Part shown: positions 2,033 to 56,855 of the stretch, in pieces
Numbering within the stretch: the stretch's first letter is position 1
How the letters are laid out: every line of letters begins with the position of its first letter
Assembly: GCF_902713615.1 (NCBI RefSeq)
Contig: NC_052159.1
Span: 128,980,432-129,044,431, forward strand
Source: Scyliorhinus canicula
Lineage: Eukaryota
Length of the DNA: 64,000 nucleotides
Reading direction: 5' to 3'
Notes under the pieces: model-generated
Seen by the model: only the letters and a program-made list of their open reading frames with translations
Told to the model about the DNA's origin: nothing
The model's database searches: none
Translations under genes and position numbers: made by a program

Positions 2033-2270
2033 CATGAACTCAATATTGCATGCTGATTGACTTAAATTTTGGCTTGGCATCAACGCTTAGGAACGGAAAA
2101 TCCGGCTGAACGTCTTTTCTGTTATGATAAGCACTCAAGTCACGAGGGGATCATCGATAAATCTCCCCATGGATATCGTAGAATATAAGTTCCCCCATTG
2201 AGTGGGTGGAGGCTCCCCCAAGAGGAACTATTCAGCGGGAGTTTAAAACCTGTAGCCCAGACCTGGACTG

Positions 2271-3203
2271 TGTAGCCATGCTGGCCACGCAAAATGGACA
2301 CTGAGCCAAACTAAAATGGAAGACTGCTGGGAAACAGACAGTTTAGCCAGAACAGCAGTCTGCAAAGAGCAGTTTGCATTCTGCAGCAGCAGAAACCAGT
2401 TTGGGCTCAGGTGAAAAGACCTTAGCTAGGTGCAAATGGCAAAACGCTTTGCATGCTAATGAGGCCATCAGACTTGAACACCCACACAATAGATACATTT
2501 GGTTCTGAATGGACACATTCTAATCAAGACCCAGACATCGAGGCACCAGAAACCTCCAAACAAAAGGACATAAGAAACGCCCCCTCCATCACGGAGACCC
2601 CCTCGCATTGGGGAATTAATCCAGTATCGATAAGAAATTGATCCAATAGGTAGAGCCCGCCCGAGAAGAGGGAAGGACAATGGAACCCCTATAAAAGATA
2701 GGGACCTCGTGTTGTCCGGTCTGTTAAACCCGTGCTCCGGCTCTGACTGACATCTCGCATCCTGACTCCAGCCGTTGAGCACCAGCCGCCGAAACCGTAA
2801 GTTCAACGCTCGCTACGCGATCCAAGCCCACTAGACTCCCAAGTACCAGAACGCTTGCTGAAGGCTGCAGACAAAACCAGGACGAAGGCCTCGTTCTCTG
2901 ACCTTGCCTGTTCCTGTTAGATAAGTATTCTGTTTGCTTAAGTTTAGTTATAGCTTAGTCTCTTAGTGTGCATGAGTATTTATTATAACTGTATAATAAA
3001 TATTGATCGTTTGAACTTTACTAATCGGTGTATCGTCTTTATTACTTTGAACTTGACCTTGGAATACTTGTGACGTTGCCTATACGGCAACTGGCGACTC
3101 CAGAGCTAAATAATTACATAGAACAGAGCCTAGCAGTGTTAAGCACACGTCGAACTCGGAGGCGTGTTAATACACTCCAATAAACGCGTTTTACGCCCAT
3201 AGT
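2271..3203 (+). repeat. 5' LTR (last 13 bp displaced by an inversion)
   Basis: Matches 11196-12127; the only difference seen by eye is TATAAAAG vs TATAAAG. Confidence 0.95.
2643..3000 (+). promoter_or_regulatory. LTR promoter and processing signals: CCAAT (2643), GC box (~2656), TATA (2690), splice donor GTAAGT (2797), AATAAA (2995)
   Basis: Motifs in canonical order; all also present in the diverged solo LTR at 48127-49106. Confidence 0.7.
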
Positions 3204-3398
3204 CGGATGTCGCCACTAAATGTTGCACGTTTTACTATGGGCGTAAAACGCGTTTATTGGAGTGTATTAACACGCCTCCGAGTTCGACGTGTGCTTAACA
3301 CTGCTAGGCTCTGTTCTATGTAATTATTTAGCTCTGGAGTCGCCAGTTGCCGTATAGGCAACGTCACAAGTATTCCAAGGTCAAGTTCAAAGTAATAA
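3039..3398. repeat. Inverted repeat: 165-bp arms (3039-3203, 3234-3398) with a 30-bp spacer holding the reversed LTR end and PBS
   Basis: 3204-3398 is the reverse complement of the U5 end + TTTAG + TGGCGACATCCG. Confidence 0.95.
3204..3215 (-). promoter_or_regulatory. Primer binding site TGGCGACATCCG (inverted relative to the provirus); primer tRNA uncertain, resembles Arg(UCU) with a 1-nt bulge
   Basis: On the minus strand it follows the LTR end GCAACA after a TTTAG spacer and starts with TGG. Confidence 0.7.
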
Positions 3399-3582
3399 GC
3401 GAAATTCGGAAGTGTGTTTAGTGCATGCGTACTAACAGGGCTGTAAGGTAAAACTGAAAGCTTTTTGTTGCGACAAACTTTCGGTAGTTTTGTGATCGGA
3501 AAATAGCGTAAGCCGTACCCTTTTCACGAAACACCACCCCAACAACCCCCTGTTCCAAATTATAAAAAGAGAGTCAGAGGAA

Positions 3583-5331
3583 ATGGCCATGCAGGCAATG
3601 GAACGTCTGATGGATCCAGCAAAGTTTGTGGTCGCAGCGACCAGCAGCAGTAGCAGAGTAGGCCAGTGTCCCACGTGGGAGCTGGAACTCCGCAAATATT
3701 TACAAGGAAAGGGATGGCCCCTTTGGAAAGAGTTTTGTGCAAATGAGGAGACAGGTCCCGGAAGTATAGGTCATACTTGGTGGGAGAACCTCTCTCAAAT
3801 ACACAAAAAGAGTTTAGGTAAAGCACGCAAGCCGATGGCGATTGTGTCCTGCTTGGCACAGTTGCGAGGCGCAGAGGAGGTCATCAGGACGCTCCGGGCA
3901 GATTTAGAGGAAAGGAACCGAATGAGTAAGGTCGATGTCAGGGACATCGAGAAAGAAAACCTGGAATTAAAAGGGAAGTTGGCAGAGAAGGGTAGAGAGG
4001 TGGATGATGCCAAGAGGGCTCACCAGTCTTGTCTAGCTCATCTGAACAGTTCCCAGACCCAGTATGAGAAAGCCTATCAGGACGTGCAACGTGCCGTTCT
4101 GATAAGACAGGAATCGGAAAAGCAGGTGGAGGCATTGCAGAGGCAATGTTCTGATCTCAAAGCAGCTTTGAGAGCACTCCATGCTGCAACGACCGAACAA
4201 AGACAAAGCACAGTTGACCACGCGAAATGCAGGAAACAGATTGCGGAATTGCAATCTCTGCTTTCGGTGCAGAATGGCTTCCAAAGCACCTTTGGAGCTC
4301 AGTTAGATGGGGAAAACGCCCCAGATTGGCAGGAATTAAGCGAGACAGCGCAGCGTTATGTTCAGGGAACATGTGCGCCAGCAGCTCAGCAGAAACGACA
4401 GGCACCCCAACCCCCCACAGCTCAGATCATAACCGCACCCATGAATCCCGTAACCACACAGAGGAAAGCCGAATCAGAAGGCGCCCCAGACATAACTTAC
4501 ACCACCCCTTTAACAGTAACCCAGCTAAGGGACGCTTGTGAAAAGATCACTCCGTTCCTCCCCACCGCAGACCCCCACCAGTTTTTCGCTAAAGTAAAAC
4601 AGCAGGCTACCATGTACGGCCTGGATGAGAGAGAGCAGGTTAAGCTCACCGTGCTGAGCTTAGACCAGAGTGTAGTGGCAGCCCTCCCCGACCCACAAAA
4701 CGTGGCAGGAGGCAGCCTAGAGGAGATGCACACTGCCATTTTAGATGCCATCGGGTACAATAGAGGTGACCCCGTAGAAGGATTGAATAAGTGCAGGCAG
4801 AAGAGATCCGAACACCCCACAGCATTCGCAGGAAGGCTGTGGATTCATTTCAGCGCAGTTTTCGGACAGCTAGATAGAGCGCATTTAACCCGCGAAAACA
4901 TGGTTAAGTGGACGCGCACAATTATCTCACACGCAACAGAAGCAGGACAGAGCGCTTGCAATAGTTACGACCCCTCAGAAGAGGCCCATAACGAAAAATG
5001 GGTCCTGAAAAGATTGTCCCGCGCTTGGGAGCAATCGCTTCAGGCAAAAGGAAAAGTTAGATCCCCAGAAGAGGCTCAGGCTGCTGCAGATATCCAAGCA
5101 GTCAGAGAGCACCAGAAGCCCGCATGGGTAAATGAAGGCAAGAGCAGCCCTCAGCAGAAAGGACAGGAATGCTATAACTGTGGACAGTTAGGGCATTGGG
5201 CAAAAGAGTGCCAAGCACCCCAGCGATCTCAGAGAGGCCAGCAGACAGGCACTCTGAACCGCAACAAAGCAAAACCCATCCACAATGTAGCAGTACAGTC
5301 AGGACCCACCAATGTGGACGAGACGAACTGA
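3583..5331 (+). CDS. gag: Gag polyprotein (N-terminal coiled coil, capsid with MHR-like motif, single CCHC zinc knuckle)
   Basis: 582-aa intact ORF; CYNCGQLGHWAKEC; MHR-like QKRSEHPTAFAGRL; heptad-rich region ~aa 95-230. Confidence 0.92.
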   Translation: MAMQAMERLMDPAKFVVAATSSSSRVGQCPTWELELRKYLQGKGWPLWKEFCANEETGPGSIGHTWWENLSQIHKKSLGKARKPMAIVSCLAQLRGAEEVIRTLRADLEERNRMSKVDVRDIEKENLELKGKLAEKGREVDDAKRAHQSCLAHLNSSQTQYEKAYQDVQRAVLIRQESEKQVEALQRQCSDLKAALRALHAATTEQRQSTVDHAKCRKQIAELQSLLSVQNGFQSTFGAQLDGENAPDWQELSETAQRYVQGTCAPAAQQKRQAPQPPTAQIITAPMNPVTTQRKAESEGAPDITYTTPLTVTQLRDACEKITPFLPTADPHQFFAKVKQQATMYGLDEREQVKLTVLSLDQSVVAALPDPQNVAGGSLEEMHTAILDAIGYNRGDPVEGLNKCRQKRSEHPTAFAGRLWIHFSAVFGQLDRAHLTRENMVKWTRTIISHATEAGQSACNSYDPSEEAHNEKWVLKRLSRAWEQSLQAKGKVRSPEEAQAAADIQAVREHQKPAWVNEGKSSPQQKGQECYNCGQLGHWAKECQAPQRSQRGQQTGTLNRNKAKPIHNVAVQSGPTNVDETN

Positions 5332-8300
5332 CGGTGTTCGGGCTCCCCCACTTGGGTCTGTGACACACTATGGGACTCATCAGGGAGGCCCGTAGTCACG
5401 GCAAAAGTCAAAGGGAAGCCCATAGAGTTACTGTGGGACACAGGAGGATCCCGCACCACCATTAACTCCACAACCACGGCACACGCAGACACGTGGCCGA
5501 CCACCTCCACCATCACACTTAGCGGGTTCACCGGACACTCGCAGCAGGGACACATTACAGCACCCATAGCAATTCAGCTAGGGAACATTAGCACAAGGCA
5601 CCCCGTAGTTTTAGTAAATCTTCCCCGGACAGCAGAGCACATCCTGGGGATAGATTTTATGAACGCTCACAGCTTGTCGTTCGACCCAGTGAACCAGTGT
5701 GTCTGGCGAATGGCGAGATCAGACAGAGCCCCAGCCACCCTCACAGTAGGAGACTACGCTAATCGGATTAGCGCAGTGGGAGAGTACTCATTCGACCTGA
5801 CTACACTCCACACCGACAGACAAATTAAGGCCCTACTGAACAAACACAGGACAGCATTTGCAAGTCACCGTCATGACTGTGGCAGAATGACTGGACAAGT
5901 TCATGTTACCGGACAGGACCCCCGACCGCAAAAGCAGTATAGATTTCCCCTCGAGGCAGAGGTGGAAATAGAAAAAGTTATAGGCAGCTTGTTGGACCAA
6001 GGTGTACTGAGAACGGTAGCCTCCACCAACAATGCCCCTATTTGGCCAGTGAGGAAGCCCGATGGATCATGGCGTCTGACCATCGATTATCGGGAACTCA
6101 ATAAAGTAACCCCCGCAGTAGCCCCAACGGTAGCTACTAGTCCCGAGACCATGCTCAAGCAGGGTCTCAACGCCAAGTACTTCACGGTATTGGACATCAG
6201 TAATGGATTCTGGTCAATACCATTGGCAAAAGCGTGCCAATACAAATTCGCATTCACTTTTAAAACACAGCAGTACACGTGGACATGCCTCCCACAAGGA
6301 TTCCACAATTCACCCTCCATTTTCCACCGACAGCTGGCAAGTGGATTAGAAAAATTTTCCCGACCCGAATGTCTGGTACAGTATGTAGACGACCTACTAC
6401 TGCAGACAGACACAAAGGCAGAGCACATTTCGCTTCTGGCCGAACTCCTGGAACTCTTAACTGAAATTGGCTGTAAAGTTAACCCGAAAAAGGCCCAAAT
6501 ATTGGAAAGTAAAGTGATGTATTTGGGATCAGTCATCACGCACGGCAAACGCGAGATCGAATTCAAAAGAATTGATTCGATTGTCAAATTGCCCCTTCCC
6601 CAGAATGTATCAGCCCTCCGGTCGTTTTTAGGACTGGTTGGCTATTGTCGGAACCACATAGACGGATGCGCGACAAAAGCCGCCCCACTTTCAGACCTCC
6701 TTAAGAAAGGAGCCCCCTGGGAATGGCTTCCGCAGCATACAGGCGCTGTGGAAGAGTTGAAACGAGCCCTTAGTGCAGCACCCGCGCTGCTAGTCCCCGA
6801 CCAACTTTCACCGTACGCAATAGAGGTAGCGAGCACCGATCTGACCCTCTCGGCCGTGTTGCTTCAGGAACGGCACGAGCAGCTAAGACCAGTGGCTTAT
6901 GCCTCCCGACTGTTAGACCCGGTAGAACAAGGATTTTCAGCCTGTGAGAGGCACCTCCTTGCTGTCTTCTGGGCAGTGCAGTATTTCTCATACATCACCG
7001 GACTCAACCCCATTACTATTCTGACCGAACATACACCCACACAGCTACTACTAGACGGTCGACTGAAGGACGGTTCAGTTAGCCAGATTAGGGCAGCTAG
7101 GTGGACCCTACTTTTACAAGGACGGGACATTACAGTAAAACGGACACGCACACACACATACTTAGCAGACAACCTCCAATACCCCGGACAGCCCCATGAC
7201 TGTGAAATTGTAGCTCCCCTGCATAACACAGGACCCTTTTTAGCAAAAACACCCTCCAGGAAGATAGGGAACCCGAAACAAAGCCCCCAGCCCACAGACA
7301 CGTGTGGACCCTTGAGGATTTATGTAGACGGTTCCTCCACAGTTTTAAATGGTGAGCGTATCACAGGATGCGGCATCTATGTAGAGGACGCGCAGGGGCG
7401 CGCTCTCGAAGAGATAGCTCTTAAGTTACCAGGTCACTTAGGCGCGCAGGCAGCAGAGCTAGCAGCCATAGCGTACATAGTGGACCACCCCGATTCTTTC
7501 CCCAGCCCAGCGGACATATATTCAGACAGCTTATATGTATGCAATAGCCTAACAGATTTTCTGCCCCTGTGGAGGACACGAGGTTTTGTCTCCGCAGACG
7601 GAAAACCCCTTCCATCAGCCCCCTTACTCCAGCATATCCTAGAGAAAGCGAAGGACAGGACCTTCGGCATTATAAAAGTTCGCAGCCACCATAGGTCATC
7701 ACCCCCTGGGAATGTAAAAGCCGACGCGTTGGCTAAGGCAGGTTCTAGGAGAGGACACTTATGGACCCCCCCAGCTAGCGCACCAGCTAGCGCCCCTGTG
7801 AGCGCAGTCCAAGTCCCACAGACTGATATTAAAGATCTCGTGGCAGCACAGAAACAGGACGGAGACCTCAGGGAGGTTTTCAAGGGAAACTTTGTGCCTG
7901 CTTACGAGCACTTTAAACACGCACTGACCACACATGAGGGTGTGATCATTAAGGACCAACTTTATGTGGTCCCACAGCAGGACAGGAATCAGATGATTGC
8001 CTTGTTCCATGACGGACACGGGCATCAGGGAATTGATGCAACAACGAGGCACCTCAGGCAACTCTGTTGGTGGCCTAATCTCAGGAATGATGTAACGCAC
8101 TACATAGAGAATTGCCTGATTTGTGCTCAGAATAACCCGGAGCGGTATTCTAAGAAAGCACAACTTCGGCATACTCGCCCAGTTAACGGCCCTTGGACAA
8201 ACCTCCAGATCGACTTTATAGGTCCATTGCCCCCTTGCAGGAATGGCTATAAATACGTTCTGGTGGTGATAGATACCTTTACCAAGTGGGTAGAGGCATT

Positions 8301-9558
8301 TCCCTCACGAACAAATACAGCAAAGACAGCTGCAAAGATCCTGACCCACCACATCTTCACGAGATGAGGTTTACCCCGAAGTATCGATTCGGACCAGGGA
8401 TCTCACTTTACAGGACGGGTCATGAGGAACGTCCTGACAATATTCGGAATCAAACAGAACTTCCATATTGCGTATCATCCACAGTCCAGCGGGATTGTGG
8501 AGTGCATGAATCGGACCCTAAAAACTACCCTTAGGAAAATGGTTCAAGAGAATAATTCCACATGGGATTCAGTGCTCCCATTTGCACTTATGTTCATAAG
8601 GAACACTGTCTCCACATCGACAGGATACACACCACACACACTCATGACCGGACGCCCTATGAAAGGTACAGAATTCCTTTTAGGACTGGACATGACAAGC
8701 CCCGAAGTGACGGCCCTCACACATGAAAAGGCAGTTAAAGATCTAGTTGAGACTGTGAGGTCTGCACAGCTCGCAGCCGCAGTCCAGCTAGGGAAACGCC
8801 GACAGCAACGGACTGCCTGTTTCAATAAGACCGTCCACACCACAGAATTCCAGGTTGGGCAACAGGTAATGTTATCTGTTTATAACCCCAGCAGTTTTTT
8901 GGCTCCAAAATATTCCGGTCCCTACTCAATTTCGGACAAAATTAGCCCCTCCGTTTACAGAATAAAATATCCTAATGGGAAGACCGCGTGGTTCCATATA
9001 AACCAGTTAAAGGCATATGGAACACAGGCCAACCATGCTCACCATGTCCTGCTGGATGCAGCAGAACACTACACCCCGCCCACCAGAGACACTTTTCCAC
9101 CATCCCCCTCACAGACCAGTTCATCAACGGACTCGCCCACGACTCCGCCCACAGACCACAACAGACCACGCCCCGACACGCCCACAAGCTGCCACAGCAG
9201 AGACAGCAGGACTGACACTGACTCTGAAGACAGCGACACCACACAGCCATACAGCCCACACTGCACCAACTACGACCCCGACTCCAGTGACCCCATGGAA
9301 GTCACCTACCTCAAATATCCAGAACCACCACCCAACCCCGACTACCCCGACAACACACTCGACACTACACAATGGCACAGGGACAATTCATACAGACTTG
9401 TCCGCAATGACGAGAGTGACCCCCGGTCACACAATTCCAAAATAGCATGCCTGATCCACACAAGGGTGTGGGATCCGGGAGAGCAGGACGACACGGTGTC
9501 TGACTCCCGACACGGCAACCCCTTTGTGACCCTGTTCACAGAGGCAGAATCAAAGTGA
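5332..9558 (+). pseudogene. pol: Pol (PR-RT-tether-RNase H-IN), in frame with gag via UGA; one premature stop at 8365-8367
   Basis: LLWDTGGS (~5431); LPQGF and YVDD (6382); degenerate RH (IEVAS/ERHLLA/TEH); intact RH (YVDGS at 7321, AELAA, YSDS, GNVKAD); IN HHCC, LQIDFIG, DSDQG, GIVE, GPY; ORFs starting at 3583, 5659 and 8422 share one frame. Confidence 0.93.
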
Positions 9559-10510
9559 GGTGTCCAGATGATGCAAGATAGGAGTCGTTTGAGGGAAACG
9601 ATGTCCTTTCTGATGGAACCTGCACGTATGTTTGTCTTCGTTTTATGTTTGTTTGTCTCAGGATTGTACATTGTTCAGCTGGAGGATGGACATCTTCTTT
9701 TCAGCTGAAAAGATTGTGACCACCTCACATACACGTTAGCTTGTCCGCAGATACTTTTGAGAACTTCGGTTTGATTGGAGATCTTTTCCAAAGTTGTAAC
9801 ACTTGTGACAGCCTGGTGAGCAGCTCACCGTATCGTCTAAAATATCTGAAGACCAGCTCATGTCCTCAGTTGGAGCATCTTGGCTCCCATGGTTTTTTTT
9901 TTAAGGTGCCCCTCTATTCGGCGAAATAGAGACTGCAAGTCATGGTCAACACATTCGTACCCGTTTTTTCCAGGTTACTCAGGCAGTGGACAAACGGCAC
10001 TGAGGACCCGCCCTGTCTGAGAACCCACCCTTGGTCAGCCAAGCTCGGGTATGGCACAGCACGCCCTACCCGGGGATCCCATCCAACTCGTACCCGTAGC
10101 GGCCCATACGCAACTCATTCGGATGTTTGTTTCCAAGTTTGTTTTCATTTTACGTTAGGTAGCCCTTCGGCCGCCATCCCACATGCTATTTACATCCGGG
10201 AACATTCGGATGGTAAATCAGCAAAGCCTGCGAGACGGCTCGCAGAAGGAAGGATTGTTAGGTGTATGCTGGTCTTTAAATTCGCTTTTTGAAAAAAAAA
10301 AATGAGGGGAGTCACAGGGTGTGACTTAGCCAGTCATTTTAAAGGGTCAATTGGGTTTTGAAAGACAGATGCACTAACAAGTAAAGGTCTTAAACTGTGT
10401 ATTGACAGATACTGTGCTTGATCCCAAAGGTTTCAAAGGACGAGACAGAAGTCGAAGCCAGGATTGTCAATACCGGAGGAAGAAGGAAGAGAAAGAAGAA
10501 GAACAGCAAA

Positions 10511-10864
10511 ATGATGGAAGCCCACTTATTACTGTTTAATGTCATATGTATATGTGTGGAAACAAGACACGTTTCCCCCACAACCCCCACCGTAAATGTT
10601 AGTACAACAAACCCCCAGTGCTCAGCTCTGATCAGCGAGGTTCAGACCTGGTGTACTAAATTCATGACGTGGTACTCCATGTCCTACATAATCGAATCAC
10701 TGTTGGTGATCGCGATCCTCATCGTCCTAGTGCAGACCCTCAGGTTGAGGAAATGGAAGAGGAGAGCCTCTCGTTCCAGCACCTCACCCATCTATAGAGT
10801 GCAATCCCCCATCTTCGGATTCCACCAAACCCCTCAACCCCTCACTGATTACAACACTCTGTAA
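10511..10864 (+). CDS. 117-aa small single-pass membrane protein at the env position (FAST-like candidate)
   Basis: ATGATGG in good Kozak context; hydrophobic N-terminus, NVS sequon, C-x10-C, TM IIESLLVIAILIVLVQTL, RLRKWKRR, C-terminal YNTL; upstream branch point ACTAAC (10373) and acceptor CAG (10406-10408). Confidence 0.75.
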   Translation: MMEAHLLLFNVICICVETRHVSPTTPTVNVSTTNPQCSALISEVQTWCTKFMTWYSMSYIIESLLVIAILIVLVQTLRLRKWKRRASRSSTSPIYRVQSPIFGFHQTPQPLTDYNTL

Positions 10865-11185: not shown

Positions 11186-11195
11186 AAGGAGGGAA
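11186..11195 (+). promoter_or_regulatory. Polypurine tract
   Basis: AAGGAGGGAA abutting the TG of the 3' LTR. Confidence 0.85.
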
Positions 11196-12140
11196 TGTAG
11201 CCATGCTGGCCACGCAAAATGGACACTGAGCCAAACTAAAATGGAAGACTGCTGGGAAACAGACAGTTTAGCCAGAACAGCAGTCTGCAAAGAGCAGTTT
11301 GCATTCTGCAGCAGCAGAAACCAGTTTGGGCTCAGGTGAAAAGACCTTAGCTAGGTGCAAATGGCAAAACGCTTTGCATGCTAATGAGGCCATCAGACTT
11401 GAACACCCACACAATAGATACATTTGGTTCTGAATGGACACATTCTAATCAAGACCCAGACATCGAGGCACCAGAAACCTCCAAACAAAAGGACATAAGA
11501 AACGCCCCCTCCATCACGGAGACCCCCTCGCATTGGGGAATTAATCCAGTATCGATAAGAAATTGATCCAATAGGTAGAGCCCGCCCGAGAAGAGGGAAG
11601 GACAATGGAACCCCTATAAAGATAGGGACCTCGTGTTGTCCGGTCTGTTAAACCCGTGCTCCGGCTCTGACTGACATCTCGCATCCTGACTCCAGCCGTT
11701 GAGCACCAGCCGCCGAAACCGTAAGTTCAACGCTCGCTACGCGATCCAAGCCCACTAGACTCCCAAGTACCAGAACGCTTGCTGAAGGCTGCAGACAAAA
11801 CCAGGACGAAGGCCTCGTTCTCTGACCTTGCCTGTTCCTGTTAGATAAGTATTCTGTTTGCTTAAGTTTAGTTATAGCTTAGTCTCTTAGTGTGCATGAG
11901 TATTTATTATAACTGTATAATAAATATTGATCGTTTGAACTTTACTAATCGGTGTATCGTCTTTATTACTTTGAACTTGACCTTGGAATACTTGTGACGT
12001 TGCCTATACGGCAACTGGCGACTCCAGAGCTAAATAATTACATAGAACAGAGCCTAGCAGTGTTAAGCACACGTCGAACTCGGAGGCGTGTTAATACACT
12101 CCAATAAACGCGTTTTACGCCCATAGTAAAACGTGCAACA
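11196..12140 (+). repeat. 3' LTR
   Basis: TG...CA termini, preceded by PPT, followed by TSD ACTG. Confidence 0.95.
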
Positions 12141-12589
12141 ACTGACATGTCCAATGGTCCCTGGGCTAGGACACAAGCAGTGTACGCTGCAGCGCTTTTG
12201 GTTATCCAAATAAACTGCAGTTCAAATGAAGCCTGGCCTTGGTGGCATGGCTACACTTTCCAAGCCCACCTTGTTATGGCTGTTCAAAATTTTATATGCT
12301 TCAATCAAGACATCTCTCACTCTTCTAAACTCCAGTGGAAACAAGCCAGTCTGCCCAACTATTCATCATTTCAGGTGTCAGCTCTACTCTGAATCGATGT
12401 TAGATGTTAACATCTAACAGACATTAGCTACATGCATGTAATGCCTCCATAAAGGTGGAGGCTGGCATGCTTCACATCAGAAACATGTGAAAACACAGTG
12501 GATGCCATTTTGGATCTTTCATAGCATCCAAATAACAAACACCACCAAGCCCAATTTCTCACCCAAAGGGGGGAAATTTATGAATGTAA

Positions 12590-18333: not shown

Positions 18334-18533
18334 AGTAAGAAGTCTTACAACACCAGGTTAAAGTCCAACAGGTTTGTTTCAAACACGAGCTTTCGGAGCA
18401 CGGCTCCTTCTTCAGGTGAAGAAGGAGCCGTGCTCCGAAAGCTCGTGTTTGAAACAAACCTGTTGGACTTTAACCTGGTGTTGTAAGACTTCTTACTGTG
18501 CTCACCCCAGTCCAACGCCGGCATCTCCACATT
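18334..18533. mobile_element. Penelope-like element terminal repeat in inverted configuration (81-bp perfect arms)
   Basis: 18334-18414 is the reverse complement of 18417-18497, with a GG spacer; followed by a CCCCAGTCCAACGCCGGCATCTCCACA tail. Confidence 0.8.
18384..18418 (-). ncRNA. Minimal hammerhead ribozyme motif
   Basis: Minus strand CAC-CUGAAGA-A-GGAGC-CGU-GCUCC-GAA-AGCU-C-GUG: core boxes, stems I and II, palindromic stem III. Confidence 0.7.
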
Positions 18534-19630: not shown

Positions 19631-19975
19631 TCGTAGAATTTACAGTGCAGAAGGAGGCCATTCAGCCCATCGAGTCTGCACCGGCTCTTGGAAAGAGCAC
19701 CCTACCCAAGGTCCACACCTCCACCCTATCCCCATAACCCAGTAACCCCACCCAACACTAAGGGCAATTTTGGACACTAAGGGCAATTTATCATGGTCAA
19801 TCCACCTAACCTGCATATCTTTGGACTGTGGGAGGAAACCGGAGCAGCCGAAGGAAACTCACACAGACATGGGGAGAACGTGCAGACTCCACACAGACAG
19901 TGACCCAAGCCGAGAATCGAACCTGGGACCCTGGAGCTGTGAAGCAATTGTGCTAACCACAATGCTACCGTGCTC
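19631..19975 (-). mobile_element. HE1-type SINE inserted in Rex1
   Basis: Full SINE; TSD CCCACTAT at 19623-19630 and 19976-19983. Confidence 0.9.
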
Positions 19976-21127
19976 CCCACTATGGTCGTATCGTCAACAA
20001 ACTTGGAGATGGAGTTGGAACCAAGTTTTGCCACACAGTCGTATGCGTACAGGGAGTAGAGTAGGGGGCTAAGTACGCAGCCTTGCGGGGCCCCGATGAC
20101 TATTGTGAAGGAGGTGTTGTTGTTCATTCTTACTGATTGTGGTCTGTTGGTCAGAAAATCGAGGATCCAGTTGCAGAGTGGAGAGCCAAGTCCTAGGTTT
20201 TGGATCTTTGATATGAGCTTGGCTGGGATTATAGTGTTGAAGGTGGAGCTGTAGTCAATAAAAAGAAGTCTGATGTAGGAGTCTGTGTTTTCGAGATGCT
20301 CTAGGGATGAGTGTAGGGCCAGGGAAATGGTGTCTGATGTGGACCGGTTGCAATGGTATGCGAATTGCAGTGGATCATGGCGTTCTGGGAGTATGTAGGT
20401 GATGCGTTTCATGATCAACCTCTCGAAGCACTTCATTACGATTGATGTCAGGACCACTGTATGGTAGTCTTTGAGGCACGTTGCCTGGTTTTTCTTTGGT
20501 ACCGGTATGATGGTGGTCTTCTTGAAGCAGGAGGGGACCTCGGAGTGGAGTAGGGACAGGTTAATGATGTCTGTCACTACCTCTGTCAGTTGGTCCACGC
20601 AGGCTCTGAGTAAATGACCAGGGATCCCGTCCGGGCCCGTCGCCTTCCGAGGTTTCTCTTTCAGGAAGGCTGATCTGACTTCGGAAGCTGTGATGGTGGG
20701 TATGGGTGAGTTATGGGCTGCTGGGGCACTCGACAGCAGATTGTTAGTTACCTACTCGAACCGAGCATAGAATGCATTGATTTCATCGGGGAGGGGTGCA
20801 CTGCTGCCAGAAATACTGCTCGGCTTCGCTTTGTAGCCCGTTATGTTGTTTAGTCCTTGCTACAATCGCCGAGAGCCTGTCTGTGACTCTAGCTTAGTTT
20901 GATATTCTCTCTTGGCATCTCGGATGGCTTTGCGGAGGTCGTACCTGGATTTCTTGTATATGTCAGGGTCGTCTGCCTTGAACGCCTCAAATCTATCCTT
21001 CAGTAAGGAGTCAATCTCGCGATTGAGCCAAGGTTTCTGGTTAGGGAATGTACGTACTACTTTCTTTGGCATGCAGTCGTCCACACATTTGCTGATGAAG
21101 TCTGTGACGGTGGTGGCGTACTCATTT

Positions 21128-22811
21128 TTTTTTTTTTATAAATGTTTTTATTCAGTTTTCGTATTTTATATTGAACAAATTACAAATTGTTAGGAGAGAG
21201 AAAAAAAAAACAAACAAAAACAAACACGCAAAAATTAACATACATATTTACAGGTAAGCATCTTCGTAGTAGTAACTGCGCCCCCCCCCCCCCCCTCCCC
21301 CCCTCAACATGTTTATTTAGCTTGGTTTTGGGCCTTAGCTAGCCATCGAACCCCCGTAACGAACCTGTAGCCCCCCCCCCCCCTCCCGCTACCTTCCCCC
21401 GACTATTCTTCCTCTTGTACATTGGCCACAAATAGGTCCCGGAACAGTTGCATGAATGGCTCCCACGTTCTGTGGAAGCCGTCGTCCGACCCTCGGATGG
21501 CAAATTTGATTTTCTCCATTTGGAGAGATTCCGAGAGGTCGGACAGCCAGTCCGCAGCTCTGGGCGGTGCTGCTGACCGCCAGCCAAACAGGATTCTACG
21601 GCGGGCGATCAGGGAGGCAAAGGCAAGGGCATCCGCCCTCCTCCCCAGGAATAGATCTGGCTGTTCTGAAACCCCGAAGACCGCCACTATCGGGCATGGC
21701 TCCACCCTCACTCCCACCACTTTGGACATTACCTCGAAGAAGGCTGTCCAGTACTCCACGAGTCTGGGGCAGGACCAGAACATGTGGGCGTGGTTGGCCG
21801 GGCCTCTTTGGCACCGTTCACATCTGTCTTCCACCTCCGGGAAGAACCTACTCATACGGGTTCTTGTTAAGTGGGCTCTATGTACCACTTTTAGTTGCGT
21901 CAGGCTGAGCCTTGCGCACGTGGAGGTGGAGTTGACCCTATGCAGTGCTTCGCTCCAGAGTCCCCACCCGATCTCCATCCCCAGGTCGTCCTCCCATTTC
22001 CTCCTTGTTGCGTCCAGTACGGTGTCGTCCCTATCTACCAGTCGGTCATACATGTCACTACAGTTCCCTTTCTCTAGGATACTTGCGTCCAGTAGGTCTT
22101 CCAGTAGTGTCTGTCGTGGCGGTTGTGGGTACGTCCTTGTCTCCTTTCGTAGGAAGTTTTTGAGCTGCAGGTAATGTAGCTCGTTCCCCCCAGCTAGCTG
22201 AAATTTCTCTGTCAGTTCGTCCAGTGTTGCGATCCTGTCGTCCGTGTATAGGTCCCTGACTGTCAGTGTCCCCCCGTCCTGCCTCCACCTTTTGAAGGTG
22301 GCGTCGGTCAGTGCTGGTTTGAACCTATGGTTGTTGCAGATGGGAGCCCTGTTCGACATTTTGGTCAGGCCAAGTTGCTGCCGCAGTTGGTTCCAGGATT
22401 GGAGGGTGGCTGTCACCACTGGGCTGCTGGAGTGTTTTTTGGGTGGGGATGGGAGTGCTGCCGTGGCGAGGGCCCGGAGGGAGGTTCCCATGCAGGAGGC
22501 CTCCTCCGCACGCACCCACTCAGCTTCTGGCTCCTGGATCCATCCCCTTACTCGCTCGGCTGTTGCTGCCCAGTGGTAGAATTGTAGATTCGGGAGGGCT
22601 AACCCTCCCCTGGTTTTTGTTTTTTGTAAGACCTTCTTTGGGATCCTAGCATTTTTACCCCCCCATACGAACGCCATGATGAGTTTGTCCAGCGCTTTGA
22701 AAAAGGCCTTGGGGATGTAGATCGGAATGGATCTAAACAGGAAGAGGAACCTGGGCAGTACGTTCATTTTGATCGTCTGAACTCTCCCCGCGAGGGAGAG
22801 CGGGAGTGTGT
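21128..22811 (-). mobile_element. 5'-truncated young L1-clade LINE
   Basis: Poly(A) tail; TSD TGGTGGCGTACTCATTT at 21111 and 22812; open ORF2 C-terminus. Confidence 0.92.
21403..22811 (-). CDS. L1 ORF2 C-terminal part (uninterrupted, 5'-truncated)
   Basis: SLAGRVQTIKMNVLPRFLFLF; CERC-x7-HMFWSC cysteine-rich motif. Confidence 0.8.
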
Positions 22812-22849
22812 TGGTGGCGTACTCATTTAACTTGGTCACTGAGACGCTT

Positions 22850-23970
22850 AAAAGACAGGAAGTTAAAGTAGATGTACTGGAGCAGGTTGAGGAAGGAAGT
22901 AGTTCGAGACATTAACCTAGTGGGGAGATGTTTACATTTCTGAAAGTTCTTCCAAAATTTGAGTAAAAGGATGTGGAAGCTTTTCTTTAAAAAGGTAGTT
23001 AAACAAATGGAATGACCTGAATAAATTTCAACATTACTTTTACAATGAAGGCTGGTACAGACAGCTACTGAGTTGGATGCATCATTGTCGGAAGAGGTAT
23101 CTGTAGATCATGATATAGTCAAGAAAGCAATCCTAGTGTATATGAGTTGGTCCCTGAGGCATAGAGGCGGAAATTTCAAAACGCAGGAAAATAGCCTGGA
23201 CAAACACATATTGAATTTGCAAGGGTGAAGCAAAATCATTTTGATTGCTGGATACGGGCATTAAAGAGAGACCAGATTTGTTTCCATCACCCTTTTAAAC
23301 CAGAGAAGGAAAGAAGGTGGAAAAAAACAAATAGTCAGGGAAAAGATGGAACAGTTGGGAATGAAGAGGAAATGTCACCTCAGATCGAAAGGGAAGGTGC
23401 TAAGGGTGGAAGTGACATTCAGAGAACGAAGTGTTTCCATTGTAATAAAGTGAGACATGTGAGGGCAGATTGTTGGAAATTAAATGGAAGACTAATTGCA
23501 ATAGTATGAAAGGAAGCATCTGAAAAAGAAACGGCTGCTCAAACTGCAGCAGTGGTGAAGGTGAAATATGCTCTTTCAGAGTCAGTGAGAAAAGGGGGAT
23601 AGACCTTAAGATAGTTCAGATAATTATTTAAGTATTGGAGACGTACTGGAGAAGGGAATCAAGATATTGGAGATTCAGGATGTTTTGTTCCAAAGGGAGA
23701 AGGTTTCCCTTACTCATCCAAGAAAATATGTAAACAAATTAAAATTTTGAAAGTTACAGGAGCAGATCAATCATTGATGATAGCTGATGACACAATTTGT
23801 ATTCCAGGAAGTTCTATGAAGGAAAAAGTATTAATAAGGGATATTACATGAAGGGATGACCTGTTTCTTTGTGTCAAGGTAATTTAAGAATTTTGTAGAT
23901 TGAATTGTTATCATGGGAAATTTCCTATTGGAGGAATAGATTTCATCCTTGGTAATAACTTCGCTTGCGG
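22850..23970 (+). pseudogene. Degenerate Gypsy (Gmr1-like) gag-protease remnant
   Basis: LPKFE.KDVEAF, YELVPEA, CFHCNKVRHVRADC knuckle, PIGGIDFILGN. Confidence 0.65.
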
Positions 23971-28389: not shown

Positions 28390-28632
28390 TACAAGTTGTT
28401 GTTTCATTGTTGTTATTTTTGTCGTTTGTCTTTGTTGTTTCCATTGTTGTTCTTGTTGTTTTTGTCGTGCTTGTTATTGCTGTTGCTGCCTTTGTTATGC
28501 TCTTTGTTGTTGTTTTTGTTGTTGTTCTTATAGTTTTTGTTGTCATGCTTGTAATTTGTTGTTGTGCTTGTTGTGCTTCTTGTTATTTCTGTTGTTTCTG
28601 TTGTTGTTCTTGTTTCTGTTGTGCTTCTTGTG
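28390..28632. repeat. Degenerate (GTT)n low-complexity tract
   Basis: Direct inspection. Confidence 0.85.
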
Positions 28633-30304
28633 TTTTTTGTTGTTTTTGTTGCGCTCAATGACTGTTCCATGTGGATAATTCGAGTCATTCAGTGTCCTTT
28701 GTGGTATCTGATGTTTCATTGAGCATTTCTTCTTGAGGATTGTGAGAATTATCTGATGTTGCATTGATCTTGGTGACATCACTCATTTGTGGTTGATGTG
28801 ATTCCTCTTTGGTTCCGAGATGCTCCTCTTCTGGAGTCATTTCTGGTTCACTTGAATCATCATTGATTTTGTGGTGCTCCTCTTTTGGAGTCATTTCAGT
28901 TCATTTGAATCATCTTTGGTTTCTTGGTGCTCCTCTTCTGAAGTCAAAATCTTCAAGATTTCATCTTCGTGTGAGTAGTTAAAAGTAGATGCGGTTTTAA
29001 TTGACGTGGTCTCACTGGAATCACAAGTGGTCGTGCCACTCAAGTCACGTTCTTTTGTACAGATGAGCTGAGATCTATCAGTCTCGCTGTGATCTTGCAC
29101 ATCTTGTATGGGAATTGTGATTTCTTCATAACTTGTCTCACATAGTGGGTAGACATTCAGTGTCTTCTTGCTGGTTTAATGAGCTGGGTAGACTTTCATA
29201 GTCTTCTTCTGGTGGCTCAAATAAGCTGGGCAGACATTCATAGTCTTTTTGTTGTTCACGTGAGCTTGGTAGACTTTCATAGTCTGCTGCTGGTTGCTCA
29301 GATAAGGTTGATAGACATTCATGTCTTGTTCATGCATGGACTTCGCTATGGTGTATTACGTTGCTTCCATTTTGGAGTCTGTCAACGAGCTCTCTGTGGA
29401 GACTTGCATCGCTCTCTGTGTGGAGTCTTTCATTGCTTTCTGTGTGGAGTCGTGCTGTGGTCTCTCTGTGGAGTTGATCTCAATGGAGTCGTTCAGTACT
29501 CGCTGTGTGGCATCGTTTTCTTCTTGGGTATTTGACAGGTTGCTGTCATCCAATGTATCGACGATCTGCCATTGCATCATGGTATTGGATTCATCTACTA
29601 TGAGTAGAGTCGTGTTGAGCTTTTCTACCGCGGCGCTTGTGCCTTTATGATCATCATATCTGAATAACTCAGCCATGTCTGATTAGTATTCTTTTGTTTC
29701 GGATTTCTCATTGTGCTCTGCACCTCGGGTGGTGCAAACAGGTTGTTCCAGGGTGCTGCGGAAGTTATTTTCAACTGATGGTAGAAGTTCAGTCATTGCT
29801 CTGTCTTTCAAGGTAAAAGAATTGTGTTTTGTAGCTATATAACTCTTTTTTTCAATTTTCGGGCATTTCCCCTTTAAATGGGTGTGGACTGGGGCCTCTG
29901 ACATCATGACGCTCATGACGTAAATCGCAAATCAATTTTCCTTTACTGTGCAGTTTATCGTAAACTGCGCATGCGCGACTTGCGCAGGCGCAGAACGATT
30001 TGCGCCCAAAAGGTATTTTTTCAATTCGCATGCGCGGCTGCTGTTTCCTGCGCATGTACAGACCTAGGTTTGCGTATTTTGTTCCCCAGGCAGTTTAAAA
30101 TGTGCTCAGACACCATTTTAACTTCTTCAGACCCATGGAAATGTATTTTTTTGCCATTTCTTCTGGTGAAAAACAAAGTTTTTTTTTCTTGCAATCTGCC
30201 CTTGTCAATCGCAATTTCCCTCAGTTAACCTTTCTGTTCTGATGATTGCTTGAGTTTCACAACACTCATTCCCTGTGTAATTTGGTCTCTGAGCATTAAA
30301 TGTC

Positions 30305-48126: not shown

Positions 48127-49106
48127 TGTAGCCACCTAAAATGGATGCTGAGCTACAAAAATAGGCCAAGCGCTAATACTGCTGGGAAACAGACAGTTTA
48201 GCCAGAACAGCAGTCTGCAAAGAGCATTTTGCATTCTGCAGCAGCAGAAACCAGTTTGGGCTCAGGTGAGAAGACCTTAGCTAGGTGCAAATGGCAAAAC
48301 GCTTTGCATGCTAATGAGGCAATCAGACCTGAACACCCACACAATAGATACATTTGATTCTGAATGGACACATTTTAATCAAGGCCCAGACATCGAGGCA
48401 CCAGAAACCTCCAAACAAAAGGGCATAAGAAACGCCCCCCCCATCACGGAGACCCCCTCGCATTGGGGAATTAAAACAGTATCGATGAGGAATTGACCCA
48501 ATAGGTAGAGCCCGCCCAAGAAGAGGGAAGGACAATGGAACCCCTATAAAAGATAGGGACCTCGTGTTGTCCGGTCTGTTTTGTGCTCCGGCTTAACTTC
48601 GGTCAAGGTCTGTTTTTCCGTGCTCCGGCTCTGACCACGACCTTGAAGATCCACTCTGACTCCAGCCGTTGAGCACCAGCCGCCGAACCGTAAGTGCCAG
48701 TACGACGCTCGCTACGCGAACTAAGCCCGCTAGAACCCCCAGTGACCAGAACGCTTGCTGAAGGTTGCAGCCCAAGACCAGGACGAAGGCCTCGCTCCCT
48801 GACCTTGCCTGTTCCTGTTAGATAAGTATTCTGATTACTTTAGTTTAGTCATTGCTTAGTCTCTTAGTGTGTGCATGAATATTTATTATTACTGTATAAT
48901 AAATATTATCGTTTGGACCTTACTAATCGGTGTATCGTCTTTATTACTTTGAACTTGACCTTGGAATACTAGTGACGTTGTCTATACGGCAACTGGCGAC
49001 TCCTAAAGCTGAATAAATACATAAGACAGAGCCTAGTGGTGTTAAGCACTTGGAAGTTAATACACCCCAATAAACGCGTTTTACGCCCATAGTAAAACGT
49101 GCAACA
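48127..49106 (+). mobile_element. Solo LTR of a sister subfamily of the 2271-12140 element
   Basis: TGTAGCC...GTGCAACA; colinear with the provirus LTR with scattered substitutions and an R-region insertion; TSD CGTC at 48123-48126 and 49107-49110. Confidence 0.95.
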
Positions 49107-53686: not shown

Positions 53687-54570
53687 GTACCGAGTGAAGA
53701 ATGTCGGAATTTCAGATATATTGCATTATAGTGCAGGTTAAAAGCCTGGGTTTGTGTGTGTATGAATGAAGCAGTAATGTTTTTAAAGAATCCTGGTGTG
53801 AAAGGATTTGGGAGCCAGAGGTACAATTAAGGCAGCTTAAAAAAGCTTGGGCAAATGGAGTTTTGTTTGGATTAAGGATTAATTGCACTCCCTGTGGAGT
53901 TAATTATATTTGAGCATGGTAAACTCATCTAATAAATGAGAAAAGCTAAATACCAGGCATTTCGCAGAAAAAAACAGTTTGGTTGAGTTTTAGAGTGAGA
54001 TGTGAGCAGAAGTCAAGTATCTGCTCTCATTGCAGTTCAGTTAAAGATATCTCTGTCCACTAACTAGCAGTTCCTTTCCAAATAGTTCAGAATTTTGTAG
54101 GTCGAAGGTAGGCTGAAACAAGCTGAGAAGTGGTTTCTGAAGAAATACAGCCAGAGTTTTTGCATGGTTCTGAGAGGGTTCAGGTCTTTTCTTTAAAACA
54201 GTTTTTAAAAATATCTCTGTACAGCAGATATTCCTGAGTGCTAATTGTATTTGAAAGTGGATTGAGATCTGAGATGATTCTGTTGTTTGAATAGAAATAA
54301 AGATAGCAGTTAAGGGCTATTGTGTCACTGTATTGATTAACATTGTTTAAGGGATAATTGTAAGCTATTTGTTTTGTGTGATGTTAAAGATAATTTAATG
54401 TTGTGTTAATAATAAAATTTGTTTTAATATAACATAATCTATTTTGTGCAAAATTACTCCTGGAGTGAGGTATAATTTCCTCACAGTCTTACAAAATTAA
54501 AATAAAATATTGGGGTTTCTGACCAGTATCGTAGCCACTGTTGGAGTCTGGTCCAAGGATCAGAATAATG
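53687..54570 (+). mobile_element. Solo-LTR-like element
   Basis: TG start, AATAAA, end resembling TGGTCC..GATC...A; no TSD confirmed. Confidence 0.4.
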
Positions 54571-54618: not shown

Positions 54619-54945
54619 CATAGAACATAGAACATAGAACAGGCCCTTCGGCCCTCGATGTTGTGCCGAACAATGATCACCCTACTTAAACCCACGTAAC
54701 CCGTATACCCGTAACCCAACAATCCCCCCATTAACCTTACACTATGGGCAATTTAGCATGGCCAATCCACCTAACCCGCACATCTTTGGACTGTGGGAGG
54801 AAACCGGAGCACCCGGAGGAAACCCACGCACACACGGGGAGGACGTGCAGACTCCACACAGACAGTGACCCAGCCGGGAATCGAACCTGGGACCCTGGAG
54901 CTGTGAAGCATTGATGCTAACCACCATGCTACCGTGAGGCCCCGA
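54619..54945 (-). mobile_element. Young HE1-type SINE (near-identical to 32174-32495)
   Basis: Shared diagnostic head TCGGGGCCTCACGGT.GCATGGTGGTTAGCATCAATG. Confidence 0.9.
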
Positions 54946-56855
54946 TCAGAACCATGCAAAAACTCTGGCTGTATTTCTTCAGAAACCACTTCTCAGCTTG
55001 TTTCAGCCTACCTTCGACCTACAAAATTCTGAACTATTTGGAAAGGAACTGCTAGTTAGTGGACAGAGATATCTTTAACTCCAACATCTTGGAGTTGACA
55101 TATGATATGCTTTCTGTCAATAGCAACCTGCACTATGGGAAAGGCTGCAATCCTCACACTGTTATGTGCTTGCTTTGCCTGCCTCTCTTTTCAAGAAGGA
55201 ATGAAATGTATTCATTTTTCTTGGAAGTTAGAACCTCCACGGCTTCCCTATTCCAGTCAGGACATGCCATAACACTCACTGTTAACTTCCACAGCTATAA
55301 ACAATAATGCTAACTTTACCAATTCCTGAAATGATCAACCACTTCTACAATCACAGCAAGAGCCAAAAGAAGTCAATCAGCAACTGAATAGCATGATGGT
55401 TTGGAGTGGGAGGAGTTGACGGGGGGGGGGGGGGGGGGGGGGGGGGTCCTTCCTGCTGCTAAATCTGTACTCAACGTTATATATTTAAGGGCACCTTCAG
55501 CACTGAATCCAAAATGGCAGTTCTGGTGCCCAATTGGTGTTACACTTGGAGTGATGTCAAAATGTGCCCCCTCTGCATCTGTCAGGCGAATGCTTCCTAA
55601 AAATTAATCAAATGCCAGCACAAGAAGTGTACGCGCACATCACATGTGTCACTTTGGAGGAAAAATGGCATTTGTAGCACTCAAATAATAGGCATTGCAA
55701 AACTAAATTTCATAGCCAGGTCCTGACAAAACGACATTCCCACACTACCAAAGTATTTTCCTGTACTGAAGTATTTTTCTGGACTATATAATATTCTGTA
55801 TATGATAGTATATATTATTCTAAAGTATATAGTCAAATTTGAGTGGGATTTCAAGCAAGTAAGCTCTGTCTCAGAAACAGGAATGAAGCAGAGATCTAAG
55901 TTGATGTGAATATCTAATTGATAACTTTGGAAACAAGTAATTGCTAAGGAACTCATCACATATGTTGGCCAAGTCTTAATTTGACAGTCAAATCTAAATA
56001 TTTTAGAAGCACAGCCTGTTATCTTCCGTAACTAGTCCATCCGAGGAAATGCAACTGGCCCCAAATTAATTTCAAACAGAAAAGTTGGCAAGTGCACTGG
56101 ACCTGTATGTACCAGAGCCTTTCAGCTCTCAACCATGGCAACCTTATACCCTCTCTCAGCCTCCCCCCACTCAACCCCTTACATAAAAAAACATTGGCGG
56201 AACATCTCAAACCACTTTACATACTGGCTTCCAGAAATATATTAATTCTGAGTGGAATGGGAATTCCCCTGGAATTGGCCCCAACAGCAGTTCCCTTCTG
56301 AAGGATGAGTGGAGGTGTTGACATTTTCAAAGCAAGTCAGAAAATTGCAGAAATCGGCATCATTTCCCATGTAGGTCCATTCACCTCCAATCCGAATAAT
56401 GATAGGAAACTGGTATTATCCCTGTTGTCGTAAAAACAACCACTCAAAACCTGTGAGCTTTCTGGTAAAAGGATTTAATTTTACAAGCATATGCTGGGGT
56501 GAGAGAACCACAGCATGCCATGGTGCCTCTCTCCATGGTACAGGTTCTGTAGTGCCTGTCTACAGTTCTTAACTGCCAACTTTTCATTATTATTTCTCTA
56601 TTAATATTTTATCTACATATACTATTCCATCAGCAGATGTTCCCATTTTCTCACCCTTGGGTATGGCCTTCAATTCCGCCGTATCTCCTTCTTGTCCTGT
56701 TCAGGAATGAATGCCTGTGAAAGCTGTTAGTGGACGCTGTCATACGGCCTTGTCATGCCCAACTTGGTGATGTGACGAGGCCGTTAAATCTTAAGAGAGA
56801 GAGAGAGAGAGGCCTCTCGTGGGATTTGCGACGCTCAGAATACCTTACGAGATCT

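Follow-up and report, generated by a model that had tools for sequence, protein, structure and literature searches.

The provirus and its relatives

The window, i.e. the whole 64-kb stretch of Scyliorhinus canicula DNA that was analysed, carries on its forward strand an endogenous retrovirus (ERV) with a length of 9.87 kb, flanked by a 4-bp target-site duplication (TSD) whose left copy lies at 2267..2270 and right copy at 12141-12144. The 5' LTR (2271..3203, +), with a TATA-like motif at 2690 and AATAAA signals at 2995 and 3179, is deprived of its last 13 nt in the sense orientation; what remains of the 5' leader (3399..3582, +, delimited from the sequence and from reads of the family) leads into gag (3583..5331, +), which is recognised from its open reading frames and profile matches and has a CCHC zinc knuckle. 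The stop at the end of gag is in frame with pol (5332..9558, +), in which profile matches identify a protease, a reverse transcriptase (RT) with a YVDD motif, an RNase H-like tether plus RNase H, and an integrase, the core of which is interrupted by an in-frame stop at 8365-8367. The dual RNase H of Pol (RT_RNaseH at aa 465-596 and RNase_H at aa 662-805) scores above the cut-off for both domains. A polypurine tract (11186..11195, +) and an intact 3' LTR of 945 nt (11196..12140, +, from the LTR alignment) complete the element, and the TG...CA LTRs, the polypurine tract and the 4-bp TSD, all present, are features of a Retroviridae-type ERV. A primer-binding site (PBS) motif beginning with TGG is situated 5 nt beyond the LTR and continues further in reads of the family; no tRNA gene was found within the window. 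The spacer between the CA of the LTR and the PBS has 5 nt (3216-3220, antisense), and is longer than the 2-nt spacer of most retroviruses.

The element has no env: between pol and the 3' LTR, no frame exceeds 152 codons, and tblastn of this interval with the post-pol frames of four out of four retroviral records as queries gave no hit. The open frame of 152 codons that stands in the place of env (10406..10864, +) has a basic stretch and one hydrophobic segment, with no family match above the cut-off in the profile search, and possibly encodes an accessory membrane protein. The two LTRs show no substitution over 932 sites, their lone difference being one A in an A-run, which would correspond to an insertion age of up to ~7 My at the rate assumed in Han 2015 (PMC4422223). 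A solo LTR of a sister subfamily (48127..49106, +; 86.8% identical in the LTR alignment) lies further downstream. Both it and the 3' LTR end normally and each insertion has its 4-bp TSD, in agreement with an earlier, sequence-only reading of the window, which had called the two LTRs normal. The solo LTR also has a different 5' end and an insertion of ~33 nt, part of which is a duplicate of sequence close to the start site. Elsewhere in the window are found a 140-bp inverted repeat, 99% complementary (54039-54178 and 54941-55080, 762 nt apart), which overlaps a SINE-like copy and may be a MITE or DNA transposon, fragmented RT frames of the non-LTR type (19777-22911, -; RVT_1 and a weak zf-RVT), and a degenerate TTG-rich tandem array with units of 9/12 nt (28408-28669).

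With regard to the affinities of the element, the nearest RT-RNase H matches, among the 120 of 336 that were listed, are 'NYNRIN-like' proteins of frog, coelacanth and turtle (43-55%). A Mustelus match from this search and the shapes of the SINEs are suggestive of a shark-like host. A FastTree phylogeny of 136 RT cores (115 of the 120 proteins, 20 of 21 loci and the window), midpoint-rooted, with weak basal support and no named SnRV or Loki sequence among its tips, places the window RT in the frog/coelacanth/turtle clade (support 0.978), joined to the viral record L065 and to P0021 at 0.839; it groups with L065 and apart from a fish clade standing beside Gypsy-like rows. L065, which we take from its length and layout to be the snakehead retrovirus, has gag, stop and pol in a single frame, as in the window element. 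On these grounds, SnRV-like ERV is the likeliest label for the element, rather than a proven identity. Such ERVs have been reported in elephant shark and coelacanth, and those of fish and sharks (CmiERV lineage I) have in common with the window element the single gag-stop-pol frame, as in L065, and the dual RNase H (PMC4422223; PMC4977317); CmiERV1, with 9.56 kb, is also of similar length (PMC4422223). The window element differs from them in having no env, and the link to L065 is supported at 0.84 only. Lokiretroviruses are described as having a paramyxovirus-F-like env, an smc gene in some cases and an RT that is sister to all sampled retroviruses (PMC7947760). Open reading frames, profiles and tblastn revealed neither an env nor a separate smc frame in the element and, with the RT positioned beside L065, a lokiretroviral identity is unsupported.

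Among viral contigs, none of the seven candidates from a single-RT search was a close relative, and the exact pattern of the loop described below had no match. An alignment search yielded 12 loci in viral contigs (best segment 38-40% where stated) and 64 in metagenome contigs (25-47%), all too distant to reveal the leader of this family, and a Gag similarity search returned generic retrotransposon Gag clusters only. A literature search over titles and abstract openings, with few subscription papers and repeat-database entries covered, retrieved no published description of this repeat, nor of a comparable rearrangement in an ERV of fish or sharks; look-ups in PMC7947760, PMC9040795 and PMC12440569 gave no mention of the PBS or of anything inverted.

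A perfect palindrome at the LTR-leader boundary

The boundary between the 5' LTR and the leader is occupied by a perfect palindrome. Its left arm (3039..3203, +) is native LTR sequence according to the inverted-repeat scan and the LTR alignment, its right arm (3234..3398, -) is an inverted copy of this segment, and the two are complementary at 165 of 165 positions on either side of a 30-nt loop. The loop comprises the first 12 nt of the PBS (3204..3215), the 5-nt spacer (3216..3220) and, as established by LTR comparison for the latter two parts, the final 13 nt of the LTR, ending in CA (3221..3233), all in reversed orientation. The reverse complement of 3204-3398 accordingly reads as the last 178 nt of the LTR followed by 17 nt, namely the spacer and 12 nt starting with TGG. 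Among perfect inverted repeats of the 64-kb window with a loop of at most 200 nt, these arms rank as the longest, the next having 81 and 19 nt; the folding z-score is -33.8 and none of 100 shuffles folds equally well. The palindrome with 81-bp arms lies at 18334-18497, has a 2-nt loop and no further copy in the window, and resembles either the fold-back of a repeat end or another assembly fold-back.

The presence of the palindrome in the assembled window is confirmed, as a statement about the assembly, in the form that the sequence-only reading had given to it: a 5' LTR that breaks off at 3203, 13 nt before its proper end, then 195 bp of antisense sequence with perfect arms, and a leader that resumes at 3399. 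The description of the PBS as flipped stands for its orientation and has to be narrowed in extent, just 12 nt of a longer PBS being present and ~104 nt of the family leader missing. The label U5 given to the arm is unproven; the arm may be R or U5, because the LTR has two AATAAA signals. The inner junction shows no microhomology on either side, and the break sits 2 nt inside the 3' arm of a small 10-bp/7-nt hairpin at the LTR end, of which a remnant is left at 3185..3203 (+) and the complete form is found in the 3' LTR (12109-12135, -12.1 kcal/mol). At the outer end of the inverted piece, the last 14 nt of the right arm (3385-3398) are identical to the family's own leader. The Rfam matches for the region, MIR7486 (45.6 versus 67 bits, and simply the hairpin) and SNORD126, are both sub-threshold and were rejected.

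Other copies of the family were found in public sequencing runs, of which 24 were listed. Nineteen (X1-X19, from 9 studies, mostly guessed to be RNA) contain 76-82% of the words of 3204-5300, the share in X20-X23 being 0.11 or 0.00, and four of the 24 were aligned to 3174-4073: X24, with raw RNA reads (about 1 in 100 sampled, 1,246 placed), and the contigs of X10, X2 and X18. These runs are probably derived from other individuals, the window copy is a single locus among the many copies of the family, and libraries are depleted of strong hairpins. A multi-subfamily ERV lineage is widely present across the 19 mostly RNA-like runs, and the family is apparently widely transcribed and recently active. 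At 3204, the PBS goes on with other letters in all four aligned runs (26 reads of X24 with an agreement of 0.99, contigs of X10 and X2, and a joint contig of X18). Among the loose ends listed, reads enter the leader at 3385 with other letters ahead (72 in X24, four contigs each in X10 and X2, and record 10 of X18). When compared by eye, the last 17 of these loose letters and the adjoining 3385-3398 pair with the LTR at 3039..3073 (+) over 31 of 35 nt, with two small bulges. This natural imperfect inverted repeat was detected in four of four runs, and a more divergent subfamily entering at 3403 (42 reads of X24 and one contig of X2) bears a variant of it.

A 238-nt contig of X18 joins 3204(-) to 3385(+) with 57 and 77 aligned letters, which leaves ~104 nt in between, and one X24 read with a 21-nt short side is consistent with this gap if the read has 151 nt; the length of ~104 nt is derived from this one contig and one consistent read. 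Ordinary copies would then run from the LTR through the spacer, a longer PBS, ~100 nt and the short imperfect inverted repeat into the leader. In the window copy, 195 nt would replace ~148 nt, and ~87 nt of unique leader, among them what follows of the PBS, would be lost. The comparison with other copies, proposed by the sequence-only reading, has in this way revealed a different leader in all four runs and points to a deletion. Judged from its sequence, this provirus copy is a defective dead end: the truncated antisense PBS and the leader deletion are accompanied by the integrase stop and the lack of env, which bears out the expectation that it should be non-replicative.

It could be imagined that the 165-bp hairpin is the norm of the family, as a self-priming or fold-back device, and that the loop alone has been flipped in the window copy. 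This proposition is rejected as extremely improbable, because the mean depth over 3174-3203 is 0.13 in X24, against ~130 over the loop just to the right of the inner junction, and 0 in three of three contig runs (in which contigs show presence, not absence), and because the reads that come into the leader at 3385 or 3403 are preceded by other letters and the PBS continues with letters that are not those of the arm. None of the four runs shows the inner junction of this copy, and no fold-back joint to 3234 is among the joints listed for them.

Origin of the rearrangement

We propose, with a probability of roughly three in four, that the rearrangement is a real, copy-specific template switch, whatever its timing. 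The double template switch suggested by the sequence-only reading is sustained in part, in so far as the event is copy-specific, its geometry fits and the leader of other members differs. What is new with respect to that reading is the predicted source of homology for the outer switch, which is the family's ~31-nt imperfect LTR-leader repeat: the outer junction falls exactly within it. The product, a perfect inverted repeat with an inverted spacer, matches the '3-1-2-4' type of quasi-palindrome switch. This is the outcome described for '3-1-2-4 / 1-3-4-2' switches (PMC5453318), and perfect arms together with spacer inversion have been documented in yeast (PMC8604942). The inter-strand switch of Ripley shares with the present case the perfect inverted repeat and inverted spacer, a reverse-complement fragment taken from the immediate neighbourhood, and a prior imperfect repeat at one junction (PMC5453318; PMC8604942). 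The differences reside in the 165-bp arms and the 195-nt piece, which are much longer, in the loss of ~87 nt, in the location at a retroviral PBS and in the possibility that a reverse transcriptase, rather than a replication fork, made the switch. On this view, a single dead ERV copy bears a template-switch mutation of a known kind, here in a large form that is centred on the PBS and whose seed has been identified. Since the LTRs differ at 0 of 932 sites and the arms at 0 of 165, it is as young as the insertion within the resolution of these counts.

As to timing, we tentatively prefer, at slightly less than an even chance, two switches seeded by the natural LTR-leader repeat in the round of reverse transcription from which this provirus arose. 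Minus-strand synthesis would arrive at the leader half of the natural repeat, where the nascent 3' end would anneal to the complementary strong-stop segment. Copying would then proceed through the LTR end and across the 5-nt spacer into 12 nt of a primer that was still attached. The copied strand would next be linked, with no homology to guide it, to LTR DNA of the plus strand that stopped at 3203, inside the small LTR-end hairpin, with normal outer ends and a normal integration (4-bp TSD) as the outcome. Reverse transcription is favoured because the copied piece consists of LTR end, spacer and part of the PBS, as in primer-bearing strong-stop DNA, and the inverted piece would end inside the PBS because a template made of primer and strong-stop DNA cannot reach past it. 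Copying into a tRNA primer usually halts near 18 nt, which counts against this origin given the 12 nt seen here, as do the blunt second join, the absence of the copy's own inner junction from the four runs and the fact that a chromosomal fork switch yields an identical sequence.

The same two switches may have taken place after integration, at a germ-line replication fork or during repair, as a Ripley-type inter-strand event starting from the natural quasi-palindrome; in a variant of this scenario, the arms were extended first and the 30-nt loop was flipped afterwards. Such a chromosomal origin is less probable. In its favour, the imperfect repeat demanded by the classic model is already present in the family, this type of event represents 23% of high-confidence human-chimp template switches (PMC5453318), a loop held by perfect arms can be inverted and restored in yeast (PMC8604942), and the LTR clock permits up to ~7 My (Han 2015 rate, PMC4422223). 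Against it, a copied piece of 195 nt exceeds what a short-range switch would lead one to expect, arms of 7-16 bp being seen in yeast (PMC8604942), and a fork would give no reason for the copied piece to end inside the PBS. Defective proviruses of HTLV-1c (PMC13427564) and of the MSD-psi class of HIV-1 (PMC6625037) present a comparable configuration, in which the outer ends are intact and the leader has been rearranged or deleted, and for these also an origin in reverse transcription or later is debated. In HTLV-1c, 1.9% of proviruses have inversions of unresolved origin, and the authors lean towards a mostly post-integration origin of defective proviruses, which counts against a timing in reverse transcription (PMC13427564). 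The window copy differs from these proviruses in being a germ-line copy and in that its inversion duplicates LTR sequence and takes in the PBS.

An assembly or library artefact, whereby the polymerase folded back at the stem that LTR and leader naturally form and the product was kept in the consensus, or at least the loop was given the wrong orientation, is unlikely. It is suggested by the lack of any read or contig backing the inner junction in the four runs, by arms that are 100% perfect, by the second perfect palindrome at 18334-18497, and by the fact that the short k-mers of both loop orientations are identical, only reads longer than an arm being able to orient the loop. The weight of the missing junction is reduced by the composition of the runs, most of which resemble RNA data and probably represent other individuals, by the single locus concerned in a multi-copy family and by the loss of strong hairpins from libraries. 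Moreover, the sequence rejoins the leader cleanly after 195 nt instead of folding back to the end of a read, and read-level chimeras rarely persist in a consensus. If the template switch is real, the copy preserves in the germ line an aberrant strand transfer whose seed, the parental repeat, is still legible in sister copies, and it illustrates how a single step can turn the LTR of an ERV into a long hairpin.

Transcription and the family-wide stem

A lone dead copy is of little consequence unless transcribed. The sequence-only reading had seen in the hairpin a potential source of endo-siRNA or trans-silencing. The promoter half of the 5' LTR is intact, the ERV family is abundant in RNA data, and any RNA that was read through the 2995 signal would fold into a stem of 165 bp. 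The runs lend no support to this role: the 1,246 placed reads of X24 include none that backs transcription through the junction of the hairpin, depth collapsing to the left of it as given above, in samples among which carriers of the insertion are not singled out and from which hairpins drop out. In maize, the transcribed inverted duplications Mu killer and Ac killer have been shown to silence, a hairpin of ~4 kb being proposed for Mu killer, and they share with the present case an inverted duplication of an element end that comes from a rearranged element (PMC3440606; bioRxiv 2020.01.07.897926). By analogy, a hairpin RNA matching the family would be possible in principle; the differences are the length of 165 bp, the vertebrate host and the fact that the window palindrome is known from its sequence alone.

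The X24 reads over 3234-3398 belong mostly to the strand class of gag, i.e. they are antisense to the LTR, and an antisense AATAAA is located at 3038. The class prevailing among the reads of gag is likewise the prevalent one over the arm (150-167 versus 29-62), and 166 X24 reads run past 3398 into LTR-like sequence. Antisense transcripts may end in LTRs of the family and, if the library class is stranded as usual (four runs pooled), antisense LTR RNA would already be common from other loci, which would leave a lesser special role for one hairpin.

We consider the family-wide stem around the PBS to be a more interesting lead than the single hairpin copy, its function being a lead only. In the ~31-nt repeat, the leader is complementary to a T-rich segment of the LTR that lies 40-75 nt past the first AATAAA, and their pairing closes a loop of ~250 nt; because it involves both LTR and leader, the stem would be confined to the 5' end of the RNA. 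ASLV has a U5-leader stem around the PBS. Retroviruses are known to have to suppress the poly(A) site of their 5' LTR (PMC6625037). This need for occlusion and the pairing of LTR and leader across the PBS are shared with HIV-1 and with retroviral U5-leader stems. The candidate stem differs from retroviral U5-leader stems in its ~31-nt repeat and its loop of roughly 250 nt, and in all 12 retroviral records compared, exact inverted repeats within the first 1,600 nt reach 13 nt at most. It can be hypothesised, as a rather improbable extension, that the repeat is a functional long-range RNA stem which brackets the PBS, masks the U-rich region after the 5' poly(A) signal or gates the primer, and which recurrently yields hairpin copies that would act as LTR-targeting dsRNA loci and damp the family in their carriers. 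The stem of the family could represent an undescribed control of the 5' poly(A) signal or of the primer site in a little-studied retroviral lineage. The LTR segment of the natural repeat has a T content of 43%, and 88 of 911 LTR windows are richer.
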